Positions 5,371 through 13,177 of a DNA stretch of 21,069 nucleotides are shown piece by piece (within the stretch, counting starts at the first letter, position 1; each line of letters opens with the position of its first letter). The position numbers and the translations under genes were made by a program. Where the stretch lies: IMG/VR virus record IMGVR_UViG_2630968342_000014, one strand, 5' to 3'. The DNA is from a virus. Taxonomy: Duplodnaviria; Heunggongvirae; Uroviricota; Caudoviricetes. The notes under the pieces were generated by a model that saw only the letters and a program-made list of their open reading frames with translations, did not search any database and had not been told where the DNA came from.

Positions 5371-6195
5371 TCAGGCGGTGAAAGTACCAATAAAGGTTTC
5401 TGCTTTGCTGTCTTTAAATTTCTCAACAAGCAGATCACGAAATTCGTTAGCCATTTCTTCCTGCACTGCTTCCAGCTGAATAATGCGCAGAACCAGTACA
5501 GGACGATCGCCAGTGATAATGCTGAGGCGTAATTTAAACGGACGTTCTTTCAGGCCTTCAAACGGAACGCATTTAAATTCAAATGCCACTGGCATAATGT
5601 CTTTGGTCTTCGCTTCGACAGACTCCATCAGGGAGCGTTTGCCGCTGAAGTCATTATCTTCAAAATCAGCGGTCTGGTTTGCTTCAATCGTGATTTTACG
5701 GACTACCGCAGCCGCTTTTGTTGCCTTAATAGCGTCACCATTAGCATCAAAGCCCACAAGATAGTCGGCCCAGTCTTCAATCCATTCTGCCAGTGACTTC
5801 TGGGAGTTACGCTCGCCGTTAACAGACAACAGAGCAGAGAACGGTGCTGTCTTTTTCAGTTTGAGTGTGGCGGTGTTATCTGCGTGACCTGGTTCACCAA
5901 TAGTACCCAGGTTAAGCACACTGACGGCACGCATATTATCAGCATCGATAAAGCAGCGGGTGCCTTCATCTGCAAGATCTTTAGAATAACGGGTAAAGTC
6001 ATCGATGCTGGCAGTGGAAAGCGCACCACGGAAACGGAAGCGATTTAAATTAAATTTTTCCAGATCATGAATGCGGAAATTCTCAGGCAATGCCACAGCA
6101 TCGGCACCAATCTTACTGATAATTTCATTAACACCCTGAGCAGAAATAAGGGCATGGATTTGATTAATTGCGGTTGCGTCTAAGTTCTGAGACAT
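5371..6195 (-). CDS. YfdQ-like protein (DUF2303 family), function unknown
   Basis: 274-aa ORF, ATG at 6195 with GAGGA Shine-Dalgarno. Size and gene order (P-Q-R-S-T) match the CPS-53 yfdQ position; family name from memory. Confidence 0.6.
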
Positions 6196-7915: not shown

Positions 7916-7972
7916 TATGTGGTTTGAACGAGTAGCCAAGGAGTGCAAGGATTATCAAAAAAAGGAGGTTGT

Positions 7973-8863
7973 ATGGAAGACGCGCTTTACGCTTTTAATT
8001 ACACACAGAACCGGGACAAGTTATTTGCTAACTTGATTAGCATCATTGATGGAATCATTGCAGATGGAGTTGTCCGTGAAGAGGAGGTTCTTTACTTAGA
8101 TACATGGTTACTTGAAGCAAAGCAGATTATCAATAATGGAGTTATAAAAAGTCTATCTGCTCGGGTGTCGGATATTCTTGCGGATGGAATAATCACATCA
8201 GAAGAACGTGATGACCTTAAAAATAGCCTTCTCCAAATACAGAGGGAAATTCTTGATATCCCTGAAATTGATTTTTACTCCAAGGATGTAGATGTCCATT
8301 TACTTAATGGACTATGTAAAGGATTAATTGCTGATCGGAACTTAACTCAAGAAGAAATAAGATATCTTAATTGGTGGCTTGAGCAAAATGGAGCTTTGAA
8401 GAACAACTACCCAGGAAAAAAACTTTATGCACTTGTAAAGGAAATTCTTAAAGATGGTGTTATTACTGAAGATGAGAGTTTAACTCTACATAAGGCATTA
8501 GTAGACTTCACAGGATGTGACTTGGAAAGTGGGGTGGTGGATGGTTTGGCGACCAGGCTGCCTATTGATGTAGGGGCTTCGATAGAGTTAGAGGGTAAAA
8601 CCTATTGTCTTACAGGCACTTTTGTTGCAGGAAAGAGAGCCGTAGTTGAAAATTTGATTAAAAATGCTGGTGGGAACATCAGTAGTGGAATTACTCAAAA
8701 GTTGGATTTTTTAGTAATTGGGACGCTTTCCTCCCGTGATTGGAAATTCTCTAGTCACGGAAGGAAGATCGAAAAGGCTATATCTTATAGGGATGATAAT
8801 GGTGCAAAACTTAAAATTATTTCTGAAGAAATGCTTTTCGATGCATTACCAAGTTCGCGATGA
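7973..8863 (+). CDS. BRCT-domain protein with four N-terminal ~40-aa helical repeats (accessory gene)
   Basis: The track ORF starts at GTG 7943, but the ATG at 7973 has an AAAGGAGG Shine-Dalgarno. C-terminus (GKTYCLTGTFVAGKRAVVENLIKNAGGNISSGITQKLDFLVIGT...KLKIISEEMLFDAL) has the pattern of a BRCT domain like the C-terminus of NAD-dependent DNA ligase. N-terminal half carries four repeats of the form L-x-x-ILADG-x-IT-x-EE-x-x-L. AT-rich. The 3' end overlaps the cI 3' end. Confidence 0.7.
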   Translation: MEDALYAFNYTQNRDKLFANLISIIDGIIADGVVREEEVLYLDTWLLEAKQIINNGVIKSLSARVSDILADGIITSEERDDLKNSLLQIQREILDIPEIDFYSKDVDVHLLNGLCKGLIADRNLTQEEIRYLNWWLEQNGALKNNYPGKKLYALVKEILKDGVITEDESLTLHKALVDFTGCDLESGVVDGLATRLPIDVGASIELEGKTYCLTGTFVAGKRAVVENLIKNAGGNISSGITQKLDFLVIGTLSSRDWKFSSHGRKIEKAISYRDDNGAKLKIISEEMLFDALPSSR

Positions 8864-9532
8864 CCAGAATACCCTACCTATAACATGAATTCTGGCTCGT
8901 CTATCTTCAAAGGTGAGTATTTCATCTGGGTACTCATCTTTGTTGAAGCTTCTAAGAATCAAGCCACCGTCAGGTAAGTTGATAAGTATTTTAACCCTTA
9001 GCAATACACCATCTCGTACGGCATAAAGATCGCCATCACGAATAGGAACGGTTTGAGAAATATCAACGGCAACAAGATCTCCATTATTGAGAACCGGTAA
9101 TAAACTGTTCCCCCATATTTGTACGATCTTGGCATTAGATGCACATACGCCAGATTTTCTCAAATCTGCTCTTCTTAACGGAAACCAGTCAATAGCTGAT
9201 TCAACTATTTCAGCCAGACATCCGTTACCTGCCGATAACTCGACATCTAAAACAGGAATGTTTACGAAAATATCGGGGTCTAATGCGGTGCTTTCTGCTT
9301 CTTTTACAACAAGATCAGGTATGGATGCGTTGTCTTCAATACCAAGTTGTAACCACTTTTGTGATACACCTAAAACTTTTGCAATTTCTTTAATTTTGCG
9401 CGGTTGTAGAGTTTCGCCATTCTCTATTTTGGCTACAGATTGTTGTGAAAGTCCAATTTTTTCAGCTAGTTGAGCTTGGCTCATGCCAGCTTTCTCTCTA
9501 CCTATCTTTAATCGTTCTGCCAGTGTTTTCAC
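8846..9532 (-). CDS. cI: cI-like prophage repressor (HTH_XRE N-terminus, S24 LexA-like autopeptidase C-terminus)
   Basis: N-terminal XRE-type HTH (LAERLKIGREKAGMSQAQLAEKIGLSQQSVAKIENGE). Probable Ala-Gly cleavage site (ELSAGNG). Catalytic Ser (WGNSLLP) and Lys (LLRVKIL) in the C-terminal domain. GTG start at 9532 with AGAGGGA Shine-Dalgarno. Divergent from a Cro-like gene. Confidence 0.9.
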   Translation of the reverse strand: MKTLAERLKIGREKAGMSQAQLAEKIGLSQQSVAKIENGETLQPRKIKEIAKVLGVSQKWLQLGIEDNASIPDLVVKEAESTALDPDIFVNIPVLDVELSAGNGCLAEIVESAIDWFPLRRADLRKSGVCASNAKIVQIWGNSLLPVLNNGDLVAVDISQTVPIRDGDLYAVRDGVLLRVKILINLPDGGLILRSFNKDEYPDEILTFEDRRARIHVIGRVFWSSRTW

Positions 9533-9916: not shown

Positions 9917-10496
9917 CCACAGTTTTAAGGAGATAGCCGTGGGTAAGCATCACTGGAAAATAGAAAAACAGCCTGAGTGGTACGTGAAAGCTGTCAGAAA
10001 AACTATCGCGGCGTTGCCGGGGGGTTACGCTGAAGCCGCTGACTGGCTGGATGTAACAGAGAACGCTTTATTCAATCGCCTTCGTGCCGATGGCGATCAG
10101 ATTTTCCCGCTGGGATGGGCAATGATTTTACAACGTGCTGGTGGAACTCACTTCATTGCTGACGCTGTGGCGCAGTCTGCAAATGGCGTCTTTGTGTCTC
10201 TTCCTGACGTCGAGGATGTGGACAACGCCGATATTAACCAGCGTCTGCTGGAAGTCATTGAACAGATCGGCAGTTATTCCAGACAGATTCGTTCAGCAAT
10301 CGAAGACGGTGTAGTGGAACCGCATGAGAAGACAGCAATTAACGACGAGCTGTACCTCTCAATTTCGAAGCTCCAGGAGCATGCAGCACTGGTCTACAAA
10401 ATCTTCTGCGCTCCAGAAAATAGTAACGCCCGCGAGTGTGCAGCTCCGGGCGTCGTGGCGTCGATTGCTTCTGGTTGTGGAGAAACTAACGCATGA
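9906..10496 (+). CDS. CII-like regulatory protein (YdaT / phage CP76-type, by position and size)
   Basis: The track ORF starts at TTG 9834; the in-frame ATG at 9906 (MKSNHSFKEIAVGK...) overlaps the cro-like stop. About 196 aa. Immediately downstream of cro as in YdaS/YdaT-type immunity modules. Family assignment from memory. Confidence 0.5.
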   Translation: MKSNHSFKEIAVGKHHWKIEKQPEWYVKAVRKTIAALPGGYAEAADWLDVTENALFNRLRADGDQIFPLGWAMILQRAGGTHFIADAVAQSANGVFVSLPDVEDVDNADINQRLLEVIEQIGSYSRQIRSAIEDGVVEPHEKTAINDELYLSISKLQEHAALVYKIFCAPENSNARECAAPGVVASIASGCGETNA

Positions 10497-10641
10497 ATAG
10501 TTTAACGGCAAATAACCGTTTGTCGCAACAGCTGGTGGTCAGCGTCGCTGAACACCTGTTGTTACGGCATGAATGCAGATTACCAAATCACCTGGCTGTA
10601 AGTAACCACAGAGAACTTTACCTGACTGTGGGGGGCGAGTT

Positions 10642-10821
10642 GTGCAGGAACTTAACCGCTGGTTTCGTGACGGAAGAGGACTTTATGTTCATGTTATTCG
10701 TTGGGAGCCAGAAACACAGCGCGTTATCTATCTTCGCAAAGACTACCCGCATGAGTGCTTTAGTCCTTTGTGGAAATTCAGGCGTGATTTTGTTGAGTGT
10801 GAAGGACCACCAGCATATTGA
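10642..10821 (+). CDS. Possible small ORF (59 aa, GTG start), not in the ORF track
   Basis: Hand translation: VQELNRWFRDGRGLYVHVIRWEPETQRVIYLRKDYPHECFSPLWKFRRDFVECEGPPAY, read from GTG at 10642 with a G-rich Shine-Dalgarno (GGGGGG at 10630-10635). Lies in a 600-bp gap that the track covers only with an implausible N-terminal extension of the rha ORF. Confidence 0.3.
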   Translation: MQELNRWFRDGRGLYVHVIRWEPETQRVIYLRKDYPHECFSPLWKFRRDFVECEGPPAY

Positions 10822-10907
10822 TTCTGCCATTTCGGGACGTTACACTGTCTCTGCACCTTATAAAGCGGGTGCCGGGATTGGCGTCCTGAAATTGATTACT
10901 GAGCATA

Positions 10908-10928
10908 ACCGCGCTCATGCGGTTTTTT
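10908..10928 (+). terminator. Candidate intrinsic terminator (tR1-like position)
   Basis: ACCGC-GCTCAT-GCGGT followed by TTTTTT: 5-bp GC-rich stem, 6-nt loop, U-tract. The reverse strand lacks a U-tract after the stem. Confidence 0.4.
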
Positions 10929-11098
10929 CGTGTCATGAGCATTGCTACGCCCAAATTATGGTGGGGCGTACAGGGCCGACTTCGGTCGGGCCGGGTTCGG
11001 TAGTCTCCGGTAACGCCAACCCTGTACGTCTCACCACCTCTGTGATTGGCGTCCCATGTGGTGAGTTTTCTAAAAAACTGACTACCGGGGCTGTCACT

Positions 11099-11656
11099 AT
11101 GACTACTCTCCCAACCCTCTCTCAACCTGAAATTGCCATCGTTGATGGTCAGGCTGTTACATCTTCTTTGGCTGTTGCTGACTTCTTCTCTAAACGTCAT
11201 GACGATGTTCTGAAAAAGATCCGCATTTTGGATTGTTCTCCAGAGTTTTGTGCCCGCAATTTTGCGGAGACATCAATTTTGGTACGCCAGCCCAACGGCG
11301 GTACTCGCAAACTACCTTGCTATCAAATAACCCGCGATGGCTTCGCGTTCCTTGCTATGGGCTTCACGGGTAAACGTGCTGCCCAGTTCAAAGAGGCATA
11401 CATCAATGCCTTTAACCAGATGGAGAAACAGCTTTCAAATCCCTCTGTACTGAGCGACGTTGCACATAACGCCAGCGTTCTCTATTCCTACATTTCATCA
11501 ATTCATCAGGTCTGGCTGCAGCAGCTTTATCCCATGTTGGCAAAAGCCGAATCCCCGCTGGCTGTAAGTCTGTATGACAGCATCAACGACGCGGCGCTAC
11601 TGGCCAGTCTCATAAATTTGTCGCTGAACCCTTCAGAGGTAAGGGGGCGCAAATGA
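11099..11656 (+). CDS. rha: Rha-family phage regulatory protein
   Basis: The N-terminus from the ATG at 11099 (MTTLPTLSQPEIAIVDGQAVTSSLAVADFFSKRHDDVLKKIRIL...ITRDGFAFLAMGFTGKRAAQFKEAYINAFNQME) matches the Phage_pRha domain pattern. The track ORF 10493-11656 fuses it to an upstream extension that looks non-coding. Confidence 0.8.
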   Translation: MTTLPTLSQPEIAIVDGQAVTSSLAVADFFSKRHDDVLKKIRILDCSPEFCARNFAETSILVRQPNGGTRKLPCYQITRDGFAFLAMGFTGKRAAQFKEAYINAFNQMEKQLSNPSVLSDVAHNASVLYSYISSIHQVWLQQLYPMLAKAESPLAVSLYDSINDAALLASLINLSLNPSEVRGRK

Positions 11657-11877
11657 TCCGGAATATTTTCAAACGGTTTACCAATCAGACTTTCCGTTGT
11701 CCTCGTCCTGGTCAGTGGTACACCACGCCTGCAGGGCATGTTCTACGTGTTAGCCTGGTTGACCGTGAATGTCAGAAGGTGGTTTGTGAACCGCTGGGCC
11801 GTAATTACCGCGTCAGTATGCCGCTTATAGCCTTTTGCTCCGGAAAAATGTTTAAGCGTCTGGGAGGTGTGGCGTGA
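11653..11877 (+). CDS. Hypothetical protein (74 aa)
   Basis: ATG at 11653 overlaps the rha stop (ATGA) with a GGGGG Shine-Dalgarno. No recognisable domain. Confidence 0.5.
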   Translation: MIRNIFKRFTNQTFRCPRPGQWYTTPAGHVLRVSLVDRECQKVVCEPLGRNYRVSMPLIAFCSGKMFKRLGGVA

Positions 11878-12173
11878 ACTGTTTTCAGTTTGTGTGCGGA
11901 TGTGCTTTCGATAACCCGATTCAGCGCCTGATTATGTTGCGTGTTTTGATGTCGGGTTCTTCAGACGGTGAAGGCGAGAGAGTTATTGATCATCAGGTGC
12001 TTGCTGATTTCTGCTGTTGTTCTAAGCAAGCGATATTCAGGGAAACCCTGGCACTGGAAAGAGCTGGTTATCTTCATATCCGAAAAATTGCAACGCTTAC
12101 TATTGATGCAAAAGCCAGACTACAACCTGCGCGTGGCTACACAATTCTCATGCTGCGGAAGGAGGTTGTATGA
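11874..12173 (+). CDS. Hypothetical small protein, possible winged-helix DNA-binding fold
   Basis: GTG at 11874 with GGAGGTG Shine-Dalgarno; alternative ATG at 11934. The 3' end overlaps the start of the replication gene. Fold guess only. Confidence 0.45.
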   Translation: MNCFQFVCGCAFDNPIQRLIMLRVLMSGSSDGEGERVIDHQVLADFCCCSKQAIFRETLALERAGYLHIRKIATLTIDAKARLQPARGYTILMLRKEVV

Positions 12174-13177
12174 GCCGTTACGCCCCCACACCGGAAGTTA
12201 TGGCTATTGGTCAAATTAATATTTCCGGCAATGTTACACCTGCGACCTGGTGGAAATATATTCGACTACCCAGTGGGCGTCCGGATGCGACGGCTATCGC
12301 TCTGCTTTCAGAGATCGTTTACTGGTACCGCCCGACAGAGGTCAGGGATGAGCACACCGGAGCGTTGCTGGGATATCGCAAGCGTTTTCAGGGCGACAAA
12401 CTGCAAAGAAGCTACCAGGCGTTTGCTGAGCAGTTTGGTTTCGGGAAAAGGGAAACCGCAGATGCGCTGAAGCGTCTGCGCGATGCAGGGTTTATTACTC
12501 TGGATTTACGCACGGTGGAAATGCTCGATGGGGTGAAATGCAGCAATATTTTGTTTGTCGGGATCAACCCACAGGCAATTGCGGCCATCACCACACCTTC
12601 TTCTGTTTCGCCAGAAAGTAACAGCAATAATGCAATCAGCGATACAGCTATTACGTTAAAACGGAACACCCCCCGACGTCATAACGGAACAGGGGATACG
12701 CCGAATGTTGATACAAATACAGAGATTACTACAGAGATTACTACAGAGATTACTACAGAGATTACAACGGAGACTAAAAACACTATTGGCGCATCCGCTG
12801 ACGCGTCTGCACCAGCGCGTTCTGCCCGACAGGAATATTCACCGGAATTTGAACAGGCCTGGCAGGAATATCCCAAACGTGCTGGTGGTAATTCAAAATC
12901 CGCCGCTTTTAAAGCCTGGAAAGCCCGAATCAGGGAAGGTGTGACACCCGAAACCATGCTCGACGGTGTGAAACGCTATGCCGCCTGGGTGCGTGTCTCT
13001 GGAAATACCGGTACCCAGTTCGTGAAGCAGGCGTCGACGTTCTTTGGTCCGGATCGTCATTTCGAAGAATCCTGGGAAGTTCCTGCGGTATCTGCAGTCA
13101 GACGCGAGGACCCGTACTTCAAAGCCAGTTACGACAACGTGGACTACAGCCAGATCCCGGCAGGATTCAGGGGGTGA
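12170..13177 (+). CDS. Phage replication initiation protein (O-like / replisome organiser) containing origin-like iterons
   Basis: ATG at 12170 with GGAGG Shine-Dalgarno. N-terminal DNA-binding-like region and C-terminal FEQAWQEYPKRAGG...AAFKAWKARI motif typical of phage replication-initiator C-termini. Four tandem 12-bp repeats inside the coding sequence, as in lambda O where ori lies within the gene. Confidence 0.7.
   Translation: MSRYAPTPEVMAIGQINISGNVTPATWWKYIRLPSGRPDATAIALLSEIVYWYRPTEVRDEHTGALLGYRKRFQGDKLQRSYQAFAEQFGFGKRETADALKRLRDAGFITLDLRTVEMLDGVKCSNILFVGINPQAIAAITTPSSVSPESNSNNAISDTAITLKRNTPRRHNGTGDTPNVDTNTEITTEITTEITTEITTETKNTIGASADASAPARSARQEYSPEFEQAWQEYPKRAGGNSKSAAFKAWKARIREGVTPETMLDGVKRYAAWVRVSGNTGTQFVKQASTFFGPDRHFEESWEVPAVSAVRREDPYFKASYDNVDYSQIPAGFRG
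12719..12775. repeat. Tandem 12-bp direct repeats (ACAGAGATTACT x4 plus a degenerate fifth): candidate ori iterons
   Basis: Read directly at 12719-12766 with a partial copy to 12775; encodes EITT-EITT-EITT-EITT in the replication protein. Position and periodicity are analogous to the lambda ori iterons within O. Confidence 0.7.

Follow-up and report, generated by a model that had tools for sequence, protein, structure and literature searches.

Positions 10818 to 11098 (+ strand) of the window, a 21,069-nucleotide stretch of tailed-phage DNA (IMG/VR record IMGVR_UViG_2630968342_000014), very probably constitute an immI-type RNA immunity cassette of a lambdoid Escherichia coli prophage, in which a C4 RNA would block rha and an IsrK-like RNA would serve as decoy. 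Judged by sequence, the nested stem-loop upstream of rha belongs to the C4-type antisense RNAs of phages, and the terminator 5′ of it closes an IsrK-like small RNA. The two RNAs most likely act together to hold the prophage's Rha antirepressor-like gene off, which would make them a well-known type of phage immunity device. RNAs of the C4 type have been recognised in front of antirepressor genes since 1990, and a wide catalogue of them appeared in 2010; the cassette is an already known kind of element, and a C4-type RNA in this position is ordinary.

The cassette lies between a small DUF4222 gene (59 aa; 10642-10821, +; Pfam PF13973, E = 9e-14; PHROG 1343, E = 2e-36) and rha (11099-11656, +), which encodes a 185-aa Rha-family regulator or antirepressor-like protein (Pfam Phage_pRha, E = 2e-27). 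Substitutions in the DUF4222 gene are concentrated on its own third codon positions; the gene marks the upstream limit of the RNA cassette and is context only. The PHROG families of rha are annotated as transcriptional regulator or anti-repressor, and antirepressor activity of the 185-aa Rha is predicted from family annotation only. rha overlaps the next open reading frame by 4 nt, and the replication open reading frames after it are chained likewise. The main repressor of the prophage, encoded at 8846-9532, is of the LexA-like S24 peptidase type, and ARAGORN found no tRNA or tmRNA in the window. The initial annotation had seen no convincing long open reading frame in 10497-11098; since the DUF4222 gene and an uninterrupted 387-aa frame (10493-11656) are both found there, the stretch without protein-coding signal shrinks to about 10822-11098. 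Of 5,426 complete E. coli genomes, more than 1,000 carry the cassette, in a region that their annotation treats as coding sequence; many Stx-converting phages carry it too. E. coli G1/2 matches the cassette at 100% identity.

The C4 RNA was identified with Rfam RF01695 (score 82.3 bits, cut-off 45; full model length, 1-87 of 87; E = 4e-15; match at 10954-11041, +), with which P1 C4 itself scores 68.8 bits. Mature ends inferred from P1 C4 place the RNA at about 10960-11038. An outer helix P1 of 17 pairs, including U10959-A11036 (10959-10975 with 11020-11036), encloses a tetraloop hairpin, P2 (CCGAC-TTCG-GTCGG with a UUCG loop, 10976-10989), a second hairpin, P3 (GCCGG...CCGGT, 10990-11011), and a single-stranded junction. 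All sequence features of the nested stem-loop as first described are present, and it folds with a minimum free energy of −47.7 kcal/mol (z = −4.3), which 0 of 200 shuffles equalled. The outer inverted repeat had been placed at 10961-10976, one base off: the 5′ strand GGTGGGGCGTACAGGG occupies 10960-10975 and its partner strand 11020-11035. The predicted 5′ end has U at −1 and G at +1, as does the annotated P1 5′ end, and ACC follows the outer stem.

A covariance check across relatives, as the initial annotation had proposed, bore the fold out. Among 64 distinct sequences and 27 pairs, 99.9% of cells were paired, with 11 pairs and 206 cells changed on both sides; the covariation score was 0.423, against 0.19 for shuffled and at most 0.07 for slid alignments, and 0 of 500 shuffles reached it. 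The relatives were collected with a pattern and a regular expression that fix parts of C4, so the invariance of TTATGGTGGG and of CCACC is not independent evidence. A preference for UNCG and GNRA loops in C4 RNAs was noted by Weinberg et al., and the UUCG loop in the window agrees with it. An RNA on the reverse strand was considered, as the − strand folds nearly as well (z = −4.2), and was ruled out by the strand of the Rfam hits and by conserved G-U columns (10/78 is GU in 54 of 64 sequences and 36/57 in 64 of 64), which are possible as pairs on the + strand only and therefore place C4 on the + strand.

The upstream element is an IsrK-like small RNA (10853-10930, +), equivalent to a c4-a1b1 leader plus terminator. 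Its match to Rfam RF01394 (isrK; score 59.3 bits, cut-off 50; full model length, 1-77 of 77; 10853-10929) comprises two 5′ hairpins (hairpin 1, 10853-10872; hairpin 2, 10873-10888) and a Rho-independent terminator, which a terminator scan picked up independently (stem AACCGCG / TGCGGTT at 10907-10924, then TTTTTT at 10925-10930); the terminator first reported at 10908-10928 is this one. Against RF03163 (c4-a1b1), the window remained below the cut-off (22.6 versus 46.7 bits, E = 0.0012 in a 341-nt search; 10840-10892), with a match that is full length and structurally congruent and in which the a1/b1 pairing architecture is present; the same model scores above the cut-off in Gifsy-1 (48.1 bits) and P1 (51.0 bits). 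The small-RNA option raised in the initial annotation is thus supported for the nested element as a C4-family RNA and for the terminator as the 3′ end of an IsrK-like RNA.

Sequence inspection located a predicted sigma-70 promoter of the IsrK-like RNA (+), with −35 TTGATT at 10818-10823, a 17-nt spacer, and −10 TACACT at 10841-10846; it agrees with the consensus at 8 of 12 positions and consequently falls below the promoter-scan threshold. The predicted start lies near G10853, where the Rfam isrK model also begins. Relatives with differing upstream sequence have a promoter-like −35/−10 pair at the same place (TTGATT/TACACT, TTGACA/TATATT as in Gifsy-1, or TTGAAA/TATAGT). Gene order around the IsrK-like RNA is the same as in Gifsy-1, with the orf45 equivalent here lacking a stop codon and fused to rha. 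That the two elements are one system, joined by a1/b1, a′/b′, and a2/b2, had been missed initially.

The initial annotation had also offered a replication or priming signal, for which we found no support. A replication origin, priming site, or other DNA-level signal for the following replication block is exceedingly improbable: its only support is the position upstream of rha and the replication-initiation genes, whereas the conserved G-U pairs and the UUCG tetraloop point to RNA from one strand only, and two curated RNA families are matched in full. The same cassette also stands beside unrelated genes far from replication genes (after Q in Gifsy-1; in the P1 immI operon), and its sequence shows no evident iterons or AT-rich stretch. 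Strand-specific covariation effectively refutes this reading.

C4 carries two antisense segments (+), each complementary to and co-varying with two sites. Segment b′ (core CGGUAGUC, 10996-11005) forms the loop of helix P3 and matches b1 and b2, while a′ (ACGCCAA, 11013-11019) is single-stranded between P3 and the 3′ strand of P1 and matches a1 and a2. Upstream, a1 (UUGGCGU, 10878-10884, +) occupies the loop of IsrK-like hairpin 2, and b1 (GAUUACUGAGC, 10894-10904, +) lies inside the IsrK-like RNA and forms 11 pairs with b′, which in this copy include G-U pairs and are not exact complementarity. Downstream, a2 (UUGGCGU, 11046-11052, +) lies 7 nt past the C4 3′ end, and b2 (GACUACCG plus GG, 11080-11089, +) overlaps the rha Shine-Dalgarno sequence, which in this copy is GGGG only (11087-11090); the ATG follows 11 nt after the b2 core. 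The C4 family features of downstream a2/b2 sites, with b2 at the ribosome-binding site, and of an upstream a1/b1 set are therefore both found here. Duplex energies were −15.3 (b′/b2), −10.5 (a′/a2), −15.7 (b′/b1), and −10.5 (a′/a1) kcal/mol. The a-site 9-mer ATTGGCGTC has exact copies only at a1 and a2 within the 21-kb window. An extra C4 target at 5701 was considered and rejected; it is an exact b-site 8-mer lacking an adjacent a-site, and the counts are within chance for the 21-kb window.

Both site pairs co-vary with the antisense segments. For a′/a1, 6 of 7 pairs change on both sides (97.6% of cells paired), and for b′/b1 all 8 of 8 do (91%); jointly, the upstream sites have 94.3% of cells paired, 14 of 15 pairs compensatory, and a score of 0.682 versus 0.169 shuffled. 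The downstream sites (a′/a2 and b′/b2; 99 cassettes) have 90.3% of cells paired and 19 of 25 pairs compensatory, with a score of 0.421 versus 0.158 shuffled and at most 0.096 slid. Site offsets are constant across cassettes (a1, −78; b1, −62; a2, +7; b2, +38): a2 keeps its offset in about 50 specificity types and lies 3 nt past C4 in P1, and, in P1 icd as in nearly all types, the start codon falls 9 to 11 nt past b2.

The 113 distinct cassettes represent 51 b′/a′ combinations, that is, at least 51 specificity types, and tandem arrays hold up to three cassettes with different keys. At their longest, exact complements to a cassette's own sites reach 8.7 nt (b2) and 7.0 nt (a2) on average, compared with about 4.9 nt for other types. 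In a crude duplex-energy matrix, the own leader was best in 41 of 51 types, with own and foreign leaders separated only moderately, because short loops find other partners in a 75-nt leader.

We propose that transcription would start near 10853 from the promoter at 10818-10846 and that most transcripts would end at the 10907-10930 terminator, giving an IsrK-like RNA of about 77 nt with a1 and b1. C4 (about 10960-11038) would be contained in read-through transcripts and in those from the early rightward promoter, and would be freed by processing, with RNase P cutting 5′ of G10960 by analogy with P1. It would then display b′ in the P3 loop and a′ in the single-stranded junction for pairing with a2 and b2 of the rha leader; as b2 covers the ribosome-binding site, this pairing is proposed to prevent rha translation, and as 4-nt overlaps chain rha to the replication genes, expression of the latter is probably lowered as well. 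The IsrK-like RNA, having the same two sites, would compete for (titrate) C4, so that the IsrK:C4 ratio would determine Rha production. Since the a′/b′ sequences set the specificity type, C4 would be expected to repress cassettes of matching type only. A decoy role of a1/b1 has been proposed for P1 and is summarised in the supplement of Weinberg et al.

A second terminator-like hairpin (11030-11037 with 11058-11065, +) is supported by covariation, with a2 in its loop and UUUUCU (11066-11071) after it; its cells are 96.3% paired, 4 of its 8 pairs change on both sides, and the hairpin alone folds at −13.9 kcal/mol (z = −2.2). The 5′ half of this hairpin is also part of the C4 outer stem, and the hairpin, like the intrinsic terminator at 10907-10930, lies where rightward transcription must pass to reach rha and the replication genes. 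The attenuator option of the initial annotation is borne out in part by the IsrK terminator and by this covarying helix competing with the C4 stem. The cassette might be mainly a cis-acting transcription attenuator of rightward early transcription, with the C4 outer stem as anti-terminator and no need for an RNA acting in trans. Terminators that overlap the C4 P1 stem, with the same possibility of attenuation, were raised for C4 RNAs by Weinberg et al., and in Gifsy-1, according to passages of Hershko-Shalev et al. 2016 (PMC4825925), IsrK supplied in trans increased anrP transcription 8-fold. We nevertheless regard this account as improbable: it does not explain why a′ and b′ co-vary with four sites whose positions are fixed and of which one lies on a ribosome-binding site, and P1 C4 is a processed, trans-acting 77-nt RNA (P1 GenBank record; reference titles). 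With its 20-nt loop and −13.9 compared with −47.7 kcal/mol for C4, the alternative hairpin should normally lose to C4. Cis attenuation is likelier to be a further layer of control than a competing account.

The proposed antisense and decoy roles follow phage P1, whose mechanism was taken from GenBank annotation, the supplement of Weinberg et al., and later papers. The P1 GenBank record lists a1, b1, a 77-nt C4, a2, b2, and then icd, with a2/b2 as the sites repressing icd-ant translation; the annotated C4 begins GGUGGGG after U and ends CCACC. The reference list and text of a later paper name RNase P as the enzyme that makes the P1/P7 C4 5′ end. The genes downstream in the P1/P7 immI operon are icd and ant1/ant2 (Rfam RF01695, RF03163). 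The window and P1 have in common the three-helix C4 fold with a nearly identical 5′ end (AAUUAUGGUGGGGCGU), the order and near-equal spacing of a1, b1, C4, a2, and b2 with a start codon about 10 nt past b2, a terminator-like hairpin and U-tract after a1/b1, an antisense RNA derived from its target's own transcript, and an operon encoding an antirepressor-type protein. They differ in that b2 of the window lies directly on the ribosome-binding site of a Rha-family gene with no intervening icd-like gene, in that the cassette stands in the early rightward lambdoid operon ahead of replication genes rather than in a separate immI operon, and in that the frame of the C4 AUG continues without a stop into the target gene, whereas in P1 it stops after 14 codons.

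The closest experimentally studied relative is isrK-orf45(STnc1160)-anrP-isrJ of Gifsy-1. Upstream of anrP, isrK (79 bits), c4-a1b1 (48 bits), and C4 (69 bits) follow in the same order; from these matches we identify the published "orf45" region itself as a C4 gene. IsrK/orf45 of Gifsy-1 and a1b1/C4 of P1 are one and the same device. Gifsy-1 and the window are identical in both strands of the C4 outer stem and in the ACGCCAA / UUGGCGU elements (a′/a1/a2); in Gifsy-1, too, b2 is located on the antirepressor gene's Shine-Dalgarno sequence, and the same AUG is present in the C4 5′ strand. Gifsy-1 differs in its downstream AnrP (another antirepressor family), its b′ specificity, and its position after the Q gene; its orf45 ends in an AUGA overlap with anrP, whereas the frame in the window is fused to rha.

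Experiments in Gifsy-1, as given in passages of Hershko-Shalev et al. 2016 (PMC4825925), fit the model. IsrK in trans raises anrP translation 139-fold; mutations C159U and C162U de-repress anrP 100- to 200-fold, and IsrK mutants G28A and G31A are inactive. C159 and C162 are located in the ACGCCAA homologous to a′, and G28 and G31 in a1. A stable processed RNA, STnc1160, arises downstream of IsrK according to the same passages (PMC4825925), and both IsrK and STnc1160 are highly transcribed in lysogens. In those passages the authors invoke alternative folds of a long transcript together with orf45 translation, rather than a repressor RNA acting in trans, to account for their results, and report that IsrK-dependent growth arrest was strengthened, not weakened, when orf45/STnc1160 was constitutively co-expressed (PMC4825925); the stronger arrest does not fit a simple picture in which C4 represses. 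A search of that article for "C4 antisense" returned nothing, and those passages do not mention P1 C4 RNA (PMC4825925). Our literature searches found no paper linking IsrK to C4, and a 2025 review gives the two as separate systems. STnc1310 in ST64B may be a homologous transcript.

The immunity region of phage P4 contains the nested genes eta and kil. Frames run through or beside the RNA gene in P4 as they do here, with ST64B sb41 annotated as similar to P4 ORF199 and a Pfam Ash match in the window. P22 immI sar is a true cis-antisense RNA, on the opposite strand across the ant start, whereas C4 of the window is on the same strand as its target and would act via two short loop-to-site contacts. 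By description only, the systems are otherwise alike: P22 sar is a small RNA that silences the antirepressor gene ant in a temperate enterobacterial phage (2025 review table), and P4 CI RNA (seqA, seqC), an analogy drawn by the Gifsy-1 authors, is a short processed RNA cut from the leader of the operon under its control that pairs with complementary sequences 5′ and 3′ of itself, although it is described there as causing premature transcription termination and not a block of the ribosome-binding site (PMC4825925).

The region is also open in the rha frame, which the initial annotation had overlooked. A frame fused to rha without a stop (10958-11098, +) has its predicted start at an AUG in the 5′ strand of C4, which is also the AUG where Gifsy-1 "orf45" has its first start, and no stop interrupts it in the 64 distinct Rha-linked cassettes. 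The region could also, or instead, be protein coding and supply the N-terminal "Ash" portion of a Rha-family protein of 387 aa or less, to which the stem-loops are incidental or secondary. In a softer version, functional translation would pass through the RNA genes from AUG 10958, or from ATG 10493 coupled to the cII-like stop, with ribosomes melting the terminator, C4, and the target sites to give an N-extended Rha, of 232 aa or more, that escapes C4 control. We consider coding somewhat unlikely. The 387-aa frame runs uninterrupted through the region into rha and is called by PGAP/RefSeq as a single coding sequence (10493-11656), and ST64B sb41 and the 1720a-02 antirepressor are annotated the same way. 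The rha frame is open for at least 105 codons 5′ of the rha ATG in 81 of 81 loci; the 64 distinct Rha-linked cassettes hold 448 stop trinucleotides at 61 unique sites, every one of them in the two frames other than that of rha, and the interval is always 245 or 248 nt. Pfam Phage_ASH (PF10554) matches the translated isrK-C4 span (E = 2.6e-9, 37.9 bits against a cut-off of 26), and in Gifsy-1 translation of orf45 was shown experimentally and is required for anrP translation, according to passages of Hershko-Shalev et al. 2016 (PMC4825925).

Substitution patterns argue against coding. Counts per phase reveal no third-codon-position excess in isrK (24/34/24), C4 (42/32/50), or the leader (26/38/35), compared with 26/18/67 in rha; the codon signal in 10642-10821 belongs to DUF4222, in another frame, and variation in the region is compensatory for RNA pairing. 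The 387-aa frame moreover includes an intrinsic terminator and a promoter. Phage_ASH does not behave as an amino-acid-selected domain here, as the isrK-C4 span has no codon periodicity despite the above-cut-off match, and the Gifsy-1 isrK-C4 region gives weak Phage_ASH hits in two frames with stop codons, which indicates conservation at the nucleotide level. In P1 and non-Rha cassettes, the C4-AUG frame stops after 14 to 38 codons. A second case of frame fusion was sought in C4-linked genes of three kinds (the 75-aa "MANRK...", AnrP-like, and BRO-like genes), which were uninformative: the frame either stops at 14 to 38 codons or continues in a frame other than that of the predicted gene.

In every Rha-linked relative examined, the rha frame stays open from the promoter-proximal region across the IsrK terminator, C4, and the a2/b2 leader, with no visible amino-acid constraint; this would make sense if ribosomes traverse the RNA genes. 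The cassette could then be a two-input switch in which translation overrides an RNA repressor and a′/b′ form a combinatorial address code, a reading that we put forward tentatively and hold to be rather unlikely. Ribosomes arriving on the early rightward transcript (by ATGA coupling at 10493 to the cII-like gene) or starting at AUG 10958 would suppress both terminators, stop C4 folding, strip C4 from a2/b2, and yield N-extended Rha, while transcripts from the cassette's own promoter in the lysogen, lacking ribosome traffic, would remain under IsrK/C4 control. If true, the code of independently assorting a′ and b′ segments (at least 51 combinations) would decide which co-resident prophages silence each other's antirepressors.

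Under the preferred reading, an immI-type RNA cassette, the region in complete E. coli genomes is an RNA element mislabelled as the N-terminus of a "Rha family" protein, and translated RNA sequence appears to have entered Pfam Phage_ASH and some PHROG profiles. Since Gifsy-1 IsrK/orf45 and P1 a1b1/C4 are the same device, each literature can help to interpret the other, and IsrK would be a natural decoy for an antisense repressor. The a′/b′ types would provide a readable prediction of which prophages cross-silence each other's antirepressors, which may be relevant to the induction of Shiga-toxin phages in polylysogens.

The whole window was scanned against Rfam at curated thresholds, which returned exactly two matches, both on the plus strand: C4 antisense RNA (RF01695; 10954-11041; 82.3 bits, cut-off 45; full model length) and IsrK (RF01394; 10853-10929; 59.3 bits, cut-off 50). 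No tRNA or tmRNA was found in the window. At relaxed thresholds, c4-a1b1 (RF03163) matched 10840-10892, spanning the first two IsrK hairpins, with a score below the cut-off and a congruent structure. The terminator reported in the initial annotation (AACCGCG-CTCA-TGCGGTT, 10907-10924, then six T residues) was detected by a consensus scan and is the third IsrK hairpin. The outer inverted repeat is present on the plus strand and pairs with 11020-11035, but its left arm lies one base further left than first placed (10960-10975), and U10959-A11036 lengthens it to 17 pairs; it encloses both hairpins previously assigned to it, CCGAC-UUCG-GUCGG (10976-10989) and GCCGG-loop-CCGGU (10990-11011). The minimum plus-strand fold was -47.7 kcal/mol (z = -4.3), and none of 200 shuffles was as stable. 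A promoter candidate (TTGATT-17 nt-TACACT) ends 6 nt upstream of G10853; its position is kept in relatives with unrelated upstream DNA, sometimes with different hexamers. Within its spacer (10824-10840), a CCGGG(A/G) motif is conserved in relatives with different -35/-10 hexamers and could be a regulator-binding site.

Relatives came from two sources, 80 viral contigs with a gene for a close relative of Rha and viral contigs scanned with a DNA pattern for the C4 5' half; P1, ST64B, phage 1720a-02, and Gifsy-1 were also included. Across 64 distinct C4 sequences, with three helices counted, standard pairs filled 99.9% of cells, and both sides had changed at 11 pairs (206 cells). The covariation score was 0.423, versus 0.19 for column shuffles (reached by 0 of 500) and at most 0.07 for slid partners, and in the tetraloop hairpin all five pairs co-varied. 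Because TTATGGTGGG, three G's, GCCGG, and CCACC were preset by the scan pattern and the parsing expression, their invariance cannot count as independent evidence; none of the co-varying pairs was preset in this way. At several positions G-U predominates among the sequences, a pairing that only the plus strand permits, so C4 was assigned to that strand.

The GenBank record of P1 annotates, in order, promoters, a1, b1, a 77-nt C4 RNA, a2, b2, icd, and ant1/ant2, with a2 and b2 as the sites for C4 repression of icd-ant translation. Spacing of these elements is nearly equal in the window, P1 likewise has a hairpin and U-tract after b1, and the RNA 5' ends are almost identical (GAAUUAU-GGUGGGGCGU in P1, AAAUUAU-GGUGGGGCGU in the window). 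By homology with P1, the mature C4 RNA of the window should be 10960-11038. The main difference is the gene directly behind b2, which is icd in P1 and a Rha-family gene (rha, 185 amino acids, 11099-11656, plus strand) in the window.

Two C4 segments, a' and b', each have two partners in the window. The core of b' (CGGUAGUC, 10998-11005, plus strand) lies in the loop of the third helix and is complementary to GACUACCG at 11080-11087 (b2); the duplex reaches over the GGGG Shine-Dalgarno sequence via two G-U pairs, with the rha ATG next at 11099. The a' segment (ACGCCAA, 11013-11019, plus strand) occupies a single-stranded junction and is complementary to UUGGCGU at 11046-11052 (a2). Upstream, a' has a second partner, UUGGCGU at 10878-10884 (a1), in the loop of IsrK hairpin 2, and b' has GAUUACUGAGC at 10894-10904 (b1). 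Duplex energies were -15.3 (b'/b2), -10.5 (a'/a2), -10.5 (a'/a1), and -15.7 (b'/b1) kcal/mol, and the a-site 9-mer did not occur elsewhere in the 21-kb window. Among 113 distinct cassettes there were 51 b'/a' combinations, nearly all with exact complements at constant offsets (a1 -78 and b1 -62 from the C4 start; a2 +7 and b2 +38 from the C4 end; start codon 9 to 11 nt past b2). Complementarity to the own site averaged 8.7 nt (b2) and 7.0 nt (a2), versus about 4.9 nt for other types. Pairings of a' and b' with their sites were counted on a 99-sequence alignment: downstream, 90.3% were paired, with compensatory changes at 19 of 25 pairs (score 0.421, versus 0.158 shuffled and at most 0.096 slid); upstream, 94.3% were paired, with compensatory changes at 14 of 15 pairs (0.682 versus 0.169).

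An additional helix joins the C4 3' strand (11030-11037) to the leader (11058-11065), with a2 in its loop and UUUUCU following. It was 96% paired with compensatory changes. Folded alone it reaches -13.9 kcal/mol, well short of the stability of C4; it could serve as a second attenuator or set the 3' end of a C4 precursor.

The initial annotation saw no convincing open reading frame in 10497-11098; a DUF4222 gene occupies 10642-10821, and the rha frame is open from 10493. Between the window and diverged relatives, substitutions in rha fell on third positions (26/18/67 by codon phase) and those in 10642-10821 followed the codon phase of DUF4222, on its third positions and not on those of the rha frame, whereas isrK, C4, and the leader were flat over the three phases. 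RefSeq/PGAP gives a single 387-amino-acid "Rha family phage regulatory protein" (window 10493-11656; 1154-2317 in the compared record L205) that engulfs the DUF4222 gene, promoter, IsrK, and C4, with no ncRNA feature or DUF4222 coding sequence annotated there; GenBank phage records likewise have one coding sequence, with varying start codons. The flat phases and the DUF4222-phase signal argue that the 387-amino-acid coding sequence is very probably over-extended. The Pfam Phage_ASH (PF10554) match is exactly the translated isrK and C4 span (10841-11086, rha frame), the family weakly matches even stop-containing Gifsy-1 frames, and PHROG 821, 995, and 3960 also take in this span, with parts of 821 and 995 coinciding with the translated RNA genes. 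Translated non-coding RNA apparently makes up at least part of the sequence on which these families rest.

The RNA model alone cannot explain the open rha frame, which in 81 of 81 loci continues without a stop for 105 codons or more ahead of the rha ATG. In a count covering window 10853-11098 and 64 related, distinct Rha-linked cassettes, all 448 stop trinucleotides (61 unique sites) fell in the other two frames and none in the rha frame; the interval through both RNA genes was always 245 or 248 nt in these cassettes. The simplest idea would be that what counts is ribosomes passing through, not the peptide made.

Gifsy-1 carries isrK (79 bits), c4-a1b1 (48 bits), and C4 (69 bits), in that order, between antQ and anrP. 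Its C4 match, a full-length gene (34131-34214, minus strand), is the published "orf45" region. Hershko-Shalev et al. 2016 (PMC4825925) describe a stable processed RNA (STnc1160) from this region and note that orf45 is conserved in nucleotides and not in amino acids. In P1 nomenclature, the published mutations G28 and G31 lie in a1, and C159 and C162 in a'. In that study, a' mutations raised anrP translation 100- to 200-fold, double mutants stayed high, and IsrK in trans activated translation 139-fold, with a1-mutant IsrK inactive. These data fit C4 as repressor and IsrK as decoy, a decoy role having been proposed earlier for a1/b1 of P1 according to the Weinberg et al. supplement. The Gifsy-1 authors' own account invokes alternative folds and orf45 translation; they also report stronger growth arrest with STnc1160 co-expressed (PMC4825925), which does not fit a simple C4 repressor. 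In the papers searched, IsrK and C4 are handled as separate systems.

The sequence comparisons establish family membership, fold, strand, and the co-varying complementary sites with their positions; transcription, processing by RNase P, repression, the decoy role, polarity, and Rha activity are inferred. In a lysogen, transcripts from the cassette promoter would for the most part be the IsrK-like RNA, with some reading through; C4 would be excised from the latter, presumably by RNase P. C4 would pair with a2/b2 on every rha leader of its type and block the ribosome-binding site; should the IsrK-like RNA increase over C4, the leader would be released. Four-nucleotide overlaps chain rha and the next four open reading frames (11653, 11874, 12170, and 13174; window 11653-13177), which run into replication-initiation genes. 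These overlaps tie translation of the replication block to the gene under C4 control, and silencing of rha probably also dampens that block through polarity.

Several Escherichia coli chromosomes carry the cassette at 100% identity. It matched 1,156 of 5,426 complete E. coli genomes, 201 of them over most of its length, and is also present in many Stx-converting, mEp460-, cdtI-, and ST64B-like phages. The isrK-C4-rha cassette recurs in ST64B, where it lies between sb40 and sb41 (2369-2557). Peroxide and nitric oxide are reported to induce the ncRNA STnc1310, which is located downstream of the ST64B repressor (PMC7067206) and may be the transcript of this cassette. In the window, a 306-amino-acid open reading frame (7943-8863, plus strand) adjoins the S24-type repressor gene and has a C-terminal BRCT match (Pfam E value, 1.4e-6), an unusual domain for a prophage immunity region. 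Tandem isrK-C4-rha arrays comprise three copies 656 nt apart in one compared sequence (L120) and two copies in five others (L103, L104, L163, L181, and L016); every copy carries an a'/b' pair of its own, and short (120-amino-acid) Rha N-domain open reading frames follow the upstream copies.

The finding itself is not novel, since this kind of element is known and curated. Four by-products stand beside it: IsrK/orf45 and a1b1/C4 are equivalent systems, the cassette is mis-annotated as coding sequence, the specificity types are combinatorial, and the open frame is conserved. In many relatives the cassette (10822-11098) is a divergence hot spot, with 57 to 83% identity versus 99 to 100% in the flanks (10497-10821 and 11099-11158), and a' and b' assort independently, giving rise to their 51 combinations; both features are suggestive of heteroimmunity, with diversifying selection or an exchange of cassettes behind it.
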